This document shows, piece by piece, positions 177 to 4,580 of a stretch of DNA of 4,580 bases. The stretch lies in IMG/VR virus record IMGVR_UViG_2681813263_000015; one strand, 5' to 3'. Origin of the DNA: a virus. Lineage: Duplodnaviria > Heunggongvirae > Uroviricota > Caudoviricetes. The position numbers and the translations under genes were made by a program. Each line of letters starts with the position of its first letter. Within the stretch, counting starts at the first letter, position 1. The notes beneath the pieces are model-generated. The model saw only the letters and a program-made list of their open reading frames with translations. It did no database searches and was not told the origin of the DNA.

Positions 177-1259
177 ATGAAAAAATTAACAGTGGCAATT
201 TCTGCTGTAGCTGCATCAGTACTGATGGCGATGTCTGCTCAGGCAGCTGAAATTTATAATAAAGACAGTAACAAGCTGGATCTGTACGGGAAAGTTAATG
301 CTAAGCACTACTTCTCCTCTAATGATGCAGATGATGGTGATACTACTTATGCCCGTCTTGGCTTCAAAGGTGAAACCCAAATCAACGATCAACTGACTGG
401 TTTCGGTCAGTGGGAATATGAATTCAAAGGCAACCGCGCTGAATCTCAAGGTTCCTCCAAAGATAAAACCCGTCTTGCCTTCGCTGGCCTGAAATTCGGT
501 GACTACGGCTCCATCGATTACGGCCGTAACTACGGTGTAGCATACGACATCGGTGCGTGGACTGACGTCCTGCCAGAATTCGGTGGTGACACTTGGACTC
601 AAACAGATGTGTTCATGACTGGTCGCACCACTGGTGTTGCAACTTATCGTAACAACGACTTCTTTGGTCTGGTTGATGGTCTGAACTTTGCTGCTCAGTA
701 TCAGGGTAAAAATGACCGCACTGACGTAACTGAAGCTAATGGTGATGGTTTCGGTTTCTCCACTACTTATGAGTATGAAGGATTCGGTGTAGGTGCAACC
801 TATGCTAAATCTGACCGCACTAATAATCAGGTTATCTACGGTAACAACAGCCTGAATGCATCTGGTCAAAATGCTGAAGTATGGGCAGCTGGTCTGAAAT
901 ATGATGCGAACAACATCTATCTGGCTACCACCTATTCTGAAACCCAGAACATGACTGTTTTTGGTAATAACCATATTGCCAACAAAGCACAAAACTTCGA
1001 AGTAGTTGCACAATATCAGTTCGACTTCGGTCTGCGTCCGTCCGTTGCTTACCTGCAATCTAAAGGAAAAGACTTGGGTGCGTGGGGTGATCAGGACCTG
1101 GTTGAATATATTGATGTAGGTGCAACCTATTACTTCAACAAAAATATGTCCACTTTTGTTGATTACAAAATCAACCTGATTGATAAGAGCGATTTCACGA
1201 AAGCATCTGGCGTTGCTACCGATGATATCGTTGCTGTAGGTATGGTTTACCAGTTCTAA
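177..1259 (+). CDS. nmpC: Outer membrane general porin, NmpC/OmpD family (360-aa precursor)
   Basis: The ORF track gives 117-1259; I place the start at ATG 177 ([29 protein letters not shown]), preceded by AAGGG 6 nt upstream. It has a classic Sec signal peptide with AQA-A cleavage motif, a Gly/Tyr/Asn/Asp-rich beta-barrel composition and the porin C-terminal signature ...VGMVYQF ending in Phe. The sequence is near-identical, from memory, to E. coli NmpC / Salmonella OmpD. Confidence 0.9.
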
Positions 1260-1971: not shown

Positions 1972-2112
1972 TCATACTCCTGCTCCTGTCAGGGTTTTGG
2001 CGTAATTCTTCAGTATTCGGTAATCGGTCAAAACAGAACCGGGGAAACGATATAAGCGCAGATGCCCCCAGCGGTGGCGAAGAAGTTCTGCCATATAAAA
2101 CTCAAACATCAT
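1972..2112 (-). CDS. ylcG: Small DLP12-type protein YlcG-like (46 aa)
   Basis: Hand translation of the minus strand gives [46 protein letters not shown], then TGA. Its ATG overlaps the rusA stop (ATGA). It occupies the rusA-to-Q position held by ylcG in K-12 and has the same length as I recall. Too short for the ORF track. Confidence 0.6.
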
Positions 2113-2471
2113 TCATTCCCCATTTCGGTGATGGTCAGTTCCAGCCTCCCACCTTTGGTAACAGGCATCTTCACAACGCGGTAATCAACGACCTGAGCAT
2201 CATCCAGCCAGAAACCTGCTTTGGTGAGTGCGTCAAAAGCGGCTTTTTGCAGATTATCCAGGTCACGGCGACGGCGATCCGGCATGTGGCACTCAATACG
2301 GATTTTCACTGGCATAGCCAGGCCGATATCCAGCATTGCGTTTTTAATGATTCGGGTGACGTTATCGCGGTATGCCTGCCCTTCTGCGCTGATGTGTGTG
2401 CGCCCGCGATTATGGCGGTAATAGCGGTTATTGCTCGGAGGCCAGGGTAATGTGATGCTGTAGGTATTCAC
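2109..2471 (-). CDS. rusA: Holliday junction resolvase RusA (crossover junction endodeoxyribonuclease), 120 aa
   Basis: The full-length protein [26 protein letters not shown]...[11 protein letters not shown] matches E. coli RusA from memory. It has a GTG start codon that overlaps the ybcO stop (GTGA). Confidence 0.92.
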
Positions 2472-2758
2472 GCCTTAATAACCCCCTCTTTCAGCCAGAT
2501 AACCTGCGTTCTCGCCATACCTTCCAGCGCGCATTCTTTTGCATACTCAGCATCGACAAAATATGTGCGGCGGTCGATTTCGTCGTGACAGGCAGAACAT
2601 GCAATGGTGGCAATCAGGTCTGGCGGTTTGATACCGGTACCGCACAATCCAGCCAGCCGGATATGTGCCAGTACTGACGTTTCAGGATTGCCATTACATA
2701 CGCCAGGGATTCTTACCTGGCATTCCCGACCACGCGCTGCTTTTCTCAAATCAGCCAT
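2468..2758 (-). CDS. ybcO: YbcO-like nin-region protein (DUF1364-type putative nuclease, Cys-rich), 96 aa
   Basis: The track ORF is 2468-2797; I place the start at ATG 2758 ([23 protein letters not shown]...), which gives 96 aa and has a strong AGGAGG 4 nt upstream. Conserved Cys/His residues (CQ..C...H...C..CH) suggest metal binding. Matches K-12 YbcO from memory. Confidence 0.85.
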
Positions 2759-2921
2759 GATTCCTCCTTGCTGCCAGTCGCAACCATTTTTTATCAACCA
2801 GGCTAGCGGTATATCCGAGCAGTGTTGGTATTTCGGATGGCTTCAGCTCAGGCTTACGCTTACGACGATTTGATACTCTGTAGATGTGCCCGTTCATGAC
2901 ACGAATAAGCGGTGTAGCCAT
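2751..2921 (-). CDS. ninE: NinE-like protein (56 aa)
   Basis: Hand translation gives [56 protein letters not shown], then TGA. Its ATG overlaps the ybcN stop (TAATG) and its 3' end overlaps the ybcO start by 8 nt. AGGAGG lies upstream. Position and length match DLP12 ninE. Not in the ORF track. Confidence 0.75.
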   Translation of the reverse strand: MATPLIRVMNGHIYRVSNRRKRKPELKPSEIPTLLGYTASLVDKKWLRLAARRNHG

Positions 2922-3376
2922 TACGCCTCCTGCTTATCGCGCAGCTGCTGGTATTCACAGCTCTGCGGAATTGTCAGGTGGCAGCCGATATTCATCGCCC
3001 AGGCTTCGACTTTGCACAGGAAGATGTACATCTCGCCGGTTTCCAGCTCTGACGTATGGCGGAGGGATTGGACGGTGGTGACCTCGCCGGACACGACATC
3101 TACACGGTCTTTGCTTTCGTAGCCGAGATAGGTGTGCTTCATCGCGTCTTTGACCCACTCAGGCGTAGCGAAGGTCTTGCCGCGGGCGATGAGATATTCG
3201 CTGATCTCCGTGTACCACATGTGGCTGAGCGCGTTCTGCGACAGGCTGCGCTTCTCGCGCCACGGCTTAACCTGCAGGCGTAAGCATTGCCCGGCATCCA
3301 GCAATGGCTGAATCTGCTGGCCGATGGCCGCGAAGTTACCGCGATGGAGTTTGATGCCGTCTACTGGCAGAGTCAT
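2921..3376 (-). CDS. ybcN: YbcN / NinB-family protein (151 aa)
   Basis: The full ORF MTLPVDGIKLHRGNF...EYQQLRDKQEA has GGGAGG 4 nt upstream of the ATG. It contains a KRSLSQN motif resembling the RSLDQN motif of lambda NinB (Orf-family recombination mediator). Matches K-12 YbcN from memory. Confidence 0.85.
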   Translation of the reverse strand: MTLPVDGIKLHRGNFAAIGQQIQPLLDAGQCLRLQVKPWREKRSLSQNALSHMWYTEISEYLIARGKTFATPEWVKDAMKHTYLGYESKDRVDVVSGEVTTVQSLRHTSELETGEMYIFLCKVEAWAMNIGCHLTIPQSCEYQQLRDKQEA

Positions 3377-3560: not shown

Positions 3561-3604
3561 TTGAAGCCAAAACAGTGATCTTCGCTTTAAAAACCTTGTA
3601 TACT
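3561..3604 (+). promoter_or_regulatory. Candidate sigma70 promoter region for the AT-rich cassette
   Basis: A -10-like TATACT at 3599-3604 (immediately preceded by TG) lies about 36 nt upstream of ATG 3641. A -35-like TTGAAG at 3561-3566 is present but not at canonical spacing to that -10. AT-rich surroundings; weak call. Confidence 0.25.
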
Positions 3605-3640
3605 TTCACCTAATCACAGCCAGAACTATGGATCTAACCA

Positions 3641-4018
3641 ATGACCAACAAAGAAAACAAAGATAAATATATTAACAAGTTCAAGAAAGAGCTTTCAAAA
3701 TATATACAACCAACTGCTGGAGTGGACATTCAATTATTTAACTCTAAGGATGGTGGTGGTGTAATTAAAGCCACTTTGAATAGAAGTGGAAAAAGAAAAT
3801 CATCTATTGCTGGTAATTTTACTAAATTAGGTGAGGCAATTACCTCGAGTGGGCAGAGGGTTTTTGGTGGTGATCTATCAAATGTGAATTTTTACGGAAC
3901 AAATACGATTTTTGATGGAGATACAATATTTTTAATTAAATCACCTGATTCAGAGGAGTGGTCATCACAAAAAGCTTCCAAAGACGTAGAGGGCATCGTA
4001 TTTGGAGGGAAAAAATGA
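3641..4018 (+). CDS. Hypothetical small soluble protein (125 aa), Gly/Lys/Ser-rich, no recognised domain
   Basis: Clean ORF with an in-frame stop immediately upstream (TAA at 3635-3637): MTNKENKDKYINKFKKELSKYIQPTAGVDIQLFNSKDGGGVIKATLNRSGKRK...GIVFGGKK. There is no signal peptide or TM segment and only a weak SD (GGAT). Composition is AT-rich relative to the flanking phage genes. Its stop overlaps the start of the next gene. Confidence 0.6.
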   Translation: MTNKENKDKYINKFKKELSKYIQPTAGVDIQLFNSKDGGGVIKATLNRSGKRKSSIAGNFTKLGEAITSSGQRVFGGDLSNVNFYGTNTIFDGDTIFLIKSPDSEEWSSQKASKDVEGIVFGGKK

Positions 4019-4443
4019 TTAACATTACTACTAAGGATGGCACTCAAGTCAGTGGTGAAGTAAGAGATCTAGTAATTCTTCTTGAAACTGATGGAAAAAC
4101 GGTGTCTGATTATTTGCAGCCAATCCCTCCCAAAAAAGATACACACTGGAGCATGATTTTCATTCCGGTAGCAATTTATATACTACTTAATCTTGTATAC
4201 ATTATTGCTCACCCATTATTTCCTGAAAAATATCTAAAAACATCAACATCTATATTTCTATTCATTTCCTTCATATTAAGTGCAATAGTAGCATATTTTG
4301 TTTTCCATAAGCATAAATCTGCCACTCTATCCATATGCAGCTTAGTGTTCTTAGTGTTAATTGTAGGTGCTAACGTAGGGTTTATCAGTTACAGCGACCT
4401 AACACAAAAAGCGACGCAAAAATTAGATAGTTTGTCTAAATAA
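4015..4443 (+). CDS. Hypothetical small membrane protein (142 aa): soluble N-terminal region of about 45 aa plus three predicted TM helices
   Basis: The track ORF is 3958-4443; I place the start at ATG 4015 (MINITTKDGTQVSGEV...), preceded by GGAGGG at 4005-4010 and overlapping the upstream stop (ATGA). Hydrophobic stretches at about residues 46-67, 78-98 and 104-125 are separated by short charged loops (EKYLK, HKHK). KK before TM1 suggests an N-in topology. Confidence 0.65.
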   Translation: MINITTKDGTQVSGEVRDLVILLETDGKTVSDYLQPIPPKKDTHWSMIFIPVAIYILLNLVYIIAHPLFPEKYLKTSTSIFLFISFILSAIVAYFVFHKHKSATLSICSLVFLVLIVGANVGFISYSDLTQKATQKLDSLSK

Positions 4444-4450
4444 TTATGTT

Positions 4451-4471
4451 GCCATGCGAAGTATGCATGGC
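4451..4471 (+). terminator. Stem-loop downstream of the cassette (possible weak terminator)
   Basis: GCCATGC-gaagtat-GCATGGC is a perfect 7-bp stem starting 8 nt after the stop codon. The following sequence (TGCATGTCTGCCTTCCATTT) is only moderately U-rich, so this is not a canonical intrinsic terminator. Confidence 0.3.
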
Positions 4472-4580
4472 TGCATGTCTGCCTTCCATTTAAAATGGGC
4501 TAAGACCTATAACCCTAAATATTATTCTTTATTATCTTCTTTACCACTTCGGTGATGCTGCCAACTTACTGATTTAGTGT

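Follow-up and report, generated by a model that had tools for sequence, protein, structure and literature searches.

Gene content and setting of the locus

The stretch of DNA analyzed here (the window; 4,580 nucleotides) is part of a DLP12-like lambdoid prophage of Escherichia coli. It carries the following prophage features:

177-1259, plus strand: intact gene for an OmpC/NmpC-type porin (Porin_1, E = 3e-153)
1281-1301, 3' of the porin gene: GC-rich hairpin, GCGGGAGGC-ttt-GCCTCCC
Q antiterminator region, partly masked by N
2109-2471, minus strand: rusA
2468-2797, minus strand: ybcO
ylcG and ninE, minus strand
2921-3376, minus strand: ybcN, just over the Pfam NinB threshold (24.0 vs 23.8 bits)

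The DLP12 copy of the porin gene in E. coli K-12 (nmpC) is interrupted by IS5. Masking by two runs of N (1314-1346 and 1477-1621) affects the interval from the porin terminator to the 3' part of the Q gene, so that the 3' part of quuD is unreadable in the window. The ybcN allele is a rare one, with matches in 31 of 5,426 complete E. coli genomes.

At positions 1-30 the window has AAACACTATCAATAAGTTGGAGTCATTACC and at 4551-4580 it has GGTGATGCTGCCAACTTACTGATTTAGTGT; these are exact IS1 termini that point the same way and are identical to the ends of an IS1A copy found at another locus (L076, described below). A 4.5-kb prophage fragment holding the porin gene, Q, the nin genes and the two genes studied here is thus bracketed by IS1. 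This could be a composite-transposon-like structure, or else a contig broken at repeats. IS1 interrupts the replication gene P ~30 nt short of the 3' end, and the prophage is defective.

Between ybcN and P lie two intact overlapping genes, which we designate A and B. They are carried on the plus strand and are therefore antisense to the early-right operon; their strand is opposite to that of all of their neighbors, and their GC content is 30-36%, compared with 50-61% in the flanking nin genes. The features of this unit are as follows:

3599-3604, plus strand: candidate -10 element TATACT with TG before it, ~36 nt before the ATG of A, from an alignment of six upstream regions
3630-3633, plus strand: weak Shine-Dalgarno (SD) sequence of gene A, GGAT, 7-8 nt before the ATG (anti-SD duplex, -3.1 kcal/mol)
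3641-4018, plus strand: gene A, encoding a 125-aa soluble basic protein (WP_000182282.1), with an ATG start and a TGA stop
4004-4009, plus strand: strong SD sequence of gene B, GGAGGG, within the last codons of A, where it encodes the GG(K) tail (anti-SD duplex, -9.8 kcal/mol)
4015-4443, plus strand: gene B, encoding a 142-aa membrane protein (WP_000608370.1), whose start overlaps the stop of A (ATGA)
4451-4471, plus strand: perfect 7-bp hairpin, GCCATGC-7 nt-GCATGGC, with no T-run, 8 nt after the stop of B, read from the sequence
4497-4515, minus strand: terminator-like hairpin with a T-run between the convergent genes P and B, from a terminator scan

Prophages that carry the same ybcN allele and lack the pair have only co-directional small genes in this slot (ren, ead/Ea22, DUF551, HNH and a pol III theta homolog). 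This suggests that the pair was inserted independently as a cassette, or moron. More generally, the P-to-NinB slot seems to collect conflict genes. In one prophage (L003, 5665-7348; GCA_030132385.1), it holds a 377-aa protein that weakly matches Colicin and, convergent with it, a 174-aa protein that weakly matches colicin immunity; DndB-like and HNH genes are nearby.

Proteins encoded by the pair

The ATG of gene A is the earliest start possible downstream of the preceding stop, and the protein contains no internal methionine. The identical open reading frame is present in RefSeq as a "hypothetical protein" (WP_000182282.1). With the same frame in RefSeq and no alternative in-frame start, the gene call of the initial annotation stands. 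The A protein contains 17 lysines (13.6%) and 15 glycines (12%), has a pI of 9.5 and has no hydrophobic segment. Neither A nor B matched any entry in Pfam, NCBIfam or PADLOC. The sole match of A was a full-length one to PHROG 18061 ("unknown function"; residues 1-125 of 125, E = 9.3e-85), in agreement with the earlier view that this protein has no recognizable domain. B likewise matched PHROG 16940 ("unknown function") over its full length (residues 1-142 of 142, E = 2.3e-96). A literature search revealed no paper naming either protein accession or PHROG number, and a search on lambdoid hotspots returned nothing specific.

The B protein of the window comprises a soluble N-terminal region of ~44 aa followed by hydrophobic helices at about residues 45-66, 79-97 and 104-125. 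Loop 2, between the second and third transmembrane (TM) helices, carries positive charge, and no signal peptide is present. On this basis the N-terminal domain is probably cytoplasmic; the topology is uncertain, as the C-terminal tail is positively charged too.

Translation and transcription signals

The initial annotation had contrasted a weak SD sequence before A with a strong one before B. This was confirmed in the window, and the GGA core of the weak site is conserved in divergent enterobacterial copies. The same asymmetry, with A weaker and B stronger, was present at 12 of the 13 non-Bacteroidota loci examined, which makes it a trait of the family and no accident of the window. Low expression of A, which had been read from this difference, is not implied by the SD sequence alone. 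The leader of A and the beginning of its coding region are rich in adenine and have hardly any structure (fold energy of -3.1 kcal/mol from -30 to +30), and the ATGA overlap may allow translational coupling between the two genes.

The three glycine clusters pointed out previously are all present (DGGG at residues 37-40, FGGD at 75-78 and FGGKK at 121-125), but the last is a by-product of the overlapping ribosome-binding site of B. One of the three clusters is thereby explained, since the FGGKK tail is encoded by the same bases as the SD sequence of B; its GGKK is not conserved in the wider family and is modeled with low confidence.

In the alignment of six upstream regions, the GTAT core of the candidate -10 element was invariant amid otherwise divergent sequence. 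No good -35 element accompanied it, and since a consensus scan made no call at TATACT, the promoter of the pair is a putative one. The terminator scan also made no call at the hairpin at 4451-4471, which may be a transcript-end or stabilizing structure.

A and B are conserved as one unit

Homologous loci were found with a degenerate DNA pattern for F-x-G-T-N...I-K...W...D, which covers part of the A family. The pattern matched 22 loci among 185,579 GTDB species genomes and a further 26 IMG/VR contigs, and all 48 matches were confirmed as true A members by the family profile. The genome loci are from Bacteroidota, Gamma-, Beta- and Alphaproteobacteria, "Deltaproteobacteria," Verrucomicrobiota and Cyanobacteria. 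A was followed by a B-family protein at every one of the 22 genome loci and on 25 of the 26 viral contigs. The protein encoded after A is about 125-185 aa long (mostly 125-145 aa), and the two genes overlap by 4 bp at most loci, as they do through ATGA in the window. The lookup was also made in reverse: all three B-family proteins checked have an A-sized gene overlapping upstream. In one case, the protein encoded after A has two TM helices and is unrelated to the B family.

Distance matrices for A and B were correlated (r = 0.80, Mantel p <= 5e-4). For both genes, dN/dS was 0.07-0.09 (for A, against homologs with 92% and 76% amino acid identity), and both are under strong purifying selection. 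A functional tie between A and the downstream membrane protein, as suggested from the window, is supported by the conservation of the pair across phyla. A and B are best explained as a self-contained, horizontally mobile two-gene module that pairs a soluble protein with a small membrane one.

Protein families and predicted structure of A

Word-based searches with A returned enterobacterial relatives only. A profile scan of 1.84 billion representatives (E <= 1e-3) gave a family of 111 clusters at 50% identity, nearly all of them 120-135 aa long. This family, together with the dN/dS values, establishes A as a real gene. Conserved residues of the family are Y10, G39, Q72, F75, F84, G86, T87, N88, I99, K100, W107 and D115, and K100 is invariant in the alignment. 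A Pfam scan of 88 family members found no domain, with only scattered chance matches. One member consists of an A domain fused to an HNH nuclease (A-HNH).

The B family comprises 79 clusters, none of which has a Pfam domain. Its members share a soluble N-terminal stretch of ~35-40 aa followed by three TM helices, an N-terminal motif, MK(I/L)G.(I/V)EGTPEEIKDF..N.GL...DY, and a basic loop after the second TM helix, (Q/H)x(R/K)(F/H)K. A B-family profile built without enteric members matched the B protein of the window at E = 1.3e-11.

An AlphaFold2 model of A was built from the 88-sequence family alignment and had a pLDDT of 92.7 and a pTM of 0.87; it replaced an earlier run with 9 close homologs (pLDDT, 58.5). 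The N-terminal half of the model consists of a helix (residues 4-19), three strands (27-35, 40-47 and 52-60) and a second helix (63-69). The C-terminal half begins with a long conserved loop and continues with two strands (87-92 and 95-100) and helices at 104-121. A beta-rich fold had been proposed for A; the model is instead alpha/beta, with five strands and four helices, and is not mainly beta. Sequence searches of the PDB with the A and B profiles gave chance-level matches only. A is thus modeled as a cytoplasmic alpha/beta protein with a confidently predicted fold and no solved counterpart.

Several sequences in the searches were unusual. P0013 (127 aa, from a single 1,145-nt ENA contig) has a pentapeptide-repeat N terminus joined at DLSNVNF to the last 48 residues of A with 100% identity. 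The chimera probably arose at this short pentapeptide-like sequence, as an artifact of assembly or recombination. P0013 and the DLSNVNFYG stretch of A prompted us to consider a pentapeptide-repeat identity for A, which was rejected: A has no match to PF00805 or PF13599, and the model shows a loop and a beta-hairpin at this position rather than a beta-helix. P0130 (1,251 aa, with cadherin repeats) was set aside as a spurious repeat match, and P0012 (97 aa) seems to combine a truncated A with unrelated sequence.

Distribution, carriers and neighbors

The pair was present in 46 of 5,426 complete E. coli genomes. Its carriers include lambdoid prophages of E. coli, Klebsiella and Enterobacter whose flanks are otherwise mosaic. 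It is also found directly after rep on ColE2-type mobilizable plasmids and as isolated islets among chromosomal housekeeping genes. On three small plasmid-like contigs (L013, L014 and L017), rep (Replicase PF03090 plus PriCT_1) overlaps the start of A by 11 nt; given this overlap, the pair may be cotranscribed and translationally linked with rep on these plasmids. In searches with tblastn, A had no match among INPHARED phages or PLSDB plasmids, and P0031 had none in PLSDB.

Among 132 neighboring open reading frames, no Pfam family was seen more than twice. Most chromosomal neighborhoods consist of ordinary metabolic genes with no recurring partner. Defense genes were close to the pair at 3 of 23 chromosomal loci (a raw count). 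At one (L026), A-B lies 112 bp upstream of brxA-brxB-brxC (BREX). At a second (L022), A begins 35 bp after a type III methyltransferase gene, with a Snf2/HKD helicase gene nearby. At the third (L020), the PADLOC candidate gene PDC-M49A is ~900 bp from B. This proximity is suggestive of a role in conflict. Separately, we noted that pair-bearing Klebsiella-type prophages (L007 and L009 13685-14446) encode a KilA-N/BstA_C protein, the product of a BstA-like abortive-infection gene, beside the repressor.

Broken copies also were found. In E. coli CV839-06 (L076, 1742-2655), IS1A is inserted within A after codon 49 and is flanked by a 9-bp target duplication, TGAATAGAA; B is intact. On two IMG/VR contigs (L043, 12580-13381, and L050, 10014-10815), a single-base indel relative to the window breaks B and A is intact.

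Comparison with known systems

In its logic, the pair appears closest to RexA/RexB of phage lambda, to which it is not homologous: hhalign gave a probability of 0.04% for the A family against RexA and 1.3% for the B family against RexB. Both systems consist of two adjacent genes of lambdoid prophages, with prophage expression being presumed for A-B, and in both a soluble protein is accompanied by a membrane protein of ~140 aa. In the Rex system as in A-B, the membrane partner appears to be made in larger amounts than the soluble one. The two nevertheless differ in several respects. A is 125 aa long, compared with 279 aa for RexA, and B has three TM helices and a soluble N-terminal domain whereas RexB has four TM helices. 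In addition, A-B lies between P and ybcN and Rex lies next to cI, and A-B is found across phyla and on plasmids.

The pair resembles a moron in its low GC content, its position on the opposite strand, the conserved -10-like element and the hairpins after the last gene, and in being present or absent among otherwise similar prophages. The term describes packaging and not function, however, and the promoter and terminator of A-B are putative.

A soluble component coupled to a small membrane protein also is found in Kiwa (KwaA/KwaB) and in the TM effectors of CBASS, Pycsar and retron systems. As in defense systems that join a sensor to a TM effector, the soluble domain can be joined to another type of effector, as it is in the A-HNH fusion. 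Unlike them, A-B has neither a nucleotide cyclase nor a reverse transcriptase, nor any other known sensor domain, and A is much smaller than known sensors. In searches against PADLOC-DB v2.0.0, the proteins of the window had no match at E <= 1, and four distant A proteins, five distant B proteins and the A-HNH fusion had no meaningful match except for the HNH part.

With type II toxin-antitoxin systems the pair shares a compact bicistronic form with overlapping genes, carriage on plasmids and prophages, and occurrence as scattered islets. It differs from them in that its membrane protein is unlike type II toxins and the strengths of its ribosome-binding sites are opposite to the usual excess of antitoxin. 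No DNA-binding domain of the kinds found in antitoxins (HTH, RHH, AbrB or Phd/YefM) was detected by Pfam in A or in 88 family members, and the model of A shows no HTH or RHH layout.

A holin identity was considered for B and rejected. Its size and number of TM helices fit, but B is encoded several kilobases away from essD-rrrD-rzpD and on the other strand, has no match among Pfam holin families and also occurs outside phages.

Proposed function

On the evidence of sequence and genomic context, participation in phage or plasmid conflict is the most likely role of the pair, and we put it forward as a candidate. Within this, we tentatively propose that A-B serves as a module for phage exclusion or abortive infection, with A controlling the membrane effector B, a proposal to which we give a little less than an even chance. 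The pair would have its own promoter and be expressed from the repressed prophage, with B made in excess of A. A, as a sensor or regulator, would bind B at its cytoplasmic N-terminal domain, and a trigger provided by an infecting phage would then cause B to permeabilize or depolarize the inner membrane. This reading draws on the pairing of the genes, purifying selection, the mobile carriers and the cassette features. It draws also on the defense neighbors, the swapping of effectors (A-HNH and the two-TM partner) and the SD asymmetry at 12 of 13 loci. Several results speak against it. PADLOC, including its candidate systems, matches no member of either family; A and B have no sequence similarity to RexA and RexB; and the chromosomal neighborhoods are mostly metabolic, with no recurring partner. 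In addition, the conserved polar residues of A (Q72, T87, N88, K100 and D115) could mark an enzyme or ligand site and a quite different role. A broader version of the proposal, which we hold to be doubtful, is that A-B represents an unrecognized but widespread abortive-infection system. Here, a sensor of ~125 aa with a novel fold would gate a three-TM effector through its cytoplasmic N terminus, and the sensor would be reused, for example with an HNH nuclease.

The position of the pair directly after rep on small ColE2-type plasmids is what might be expected of an addiction module resembling a toxin-antitoxin system, in which A, in the cytoplasm, would neutralize the small membrane toxin B (or the roles would be reversed) and the carrier prophage or plasmid would be stabilized. 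The small bicistronic unit with overlapping genes, its toxin-antitoxin-like scatter among unrelated neighborhoods, one pair that adjoins PIN and DUF4160/DUF2442 genes (L011) and the inactivation of some copies, through two frameshifts in B, all fit this explanation. We nonetheless consider it unlikely. A has no recognizable DNA-binding domain, and the upstream gene has the weaker ribosome-binding site at 12 of 13 loci, the opposite of the usual antitoxin excess. Strain CV839-06 is viable with IS1 in A and B intact, although a polar effect of IS1 on B could account for its viability. Neither family has a PADLOC match, a weak point given that PADLOC is not a dedicated toxin-antitoxin collection. 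Of the two arrangements that the initial annotation had named side by side, toxin/antitoxin and sensor/effector, we tentatively favor the latter.

A mobile membrane function of the housekeeping type, such as a small channel, a transporter accessory or an envelope-stress module with a ligand-binding cytoplasmic partner, would have no role in conflict and would account for the mostly metabolic or housekeeping chromosomal neighbors, for the spread of the pair over many phyla and for Q72, T87, N88, K100 and D115 of A as parts of a ligand or catalytic site. It is harder to reconcile with a sparse and patchy distribution (46 of 5,426 complete E. coli genomes, and 22 matches in 185,579 species genomes for a pattern that covers part of the family), carriage on prophages and plasmids, the absence of a conserved neighbor and the copies that adjoin BREX and restriction-type genes; we regard it as rather unlikely. 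Finally, the pair might serve the phage itself during the lytic cycle, as a holin/antiholin-like timer of lysis or a replication accessory, rather than being a cassette expressed in the lysogen. In size B matches class I holins, it also has three TM helices and a charged tail at its C terminus, and the P-to-nin slot holds lytic-cycle accessory genes in related prophages. The pair, however, runs counter to the early-right operon and is distant from the lysis genes essD-rrrD-rzpD, it also occurs on plasmids and at chromosomal sites without phage genes, and it is intact in the window although the prophage is defective, with P cut by IS1. A lytic-cycle function is a very improbable explanation.

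Implications

A-B is a well-defined but uncharacterized gene pair and a candidate new conflict system. If it is a defense or addiction module, it would be a very compact one (~800 bp), built from two protein families without annotation. In that case, its carriage by prophages of clinically relevant E. coli, Klebsiella and Enterobacter could affect host range in phage therapy. Even without a known function, two "hypothetical proteins" become a defined and testable gene pair with named conserved features, namely, T87, N88, K100 and D115 in A and, in B, the N-terminal EGTPEEI-like motif and the basic loop between TM2 and TM3.
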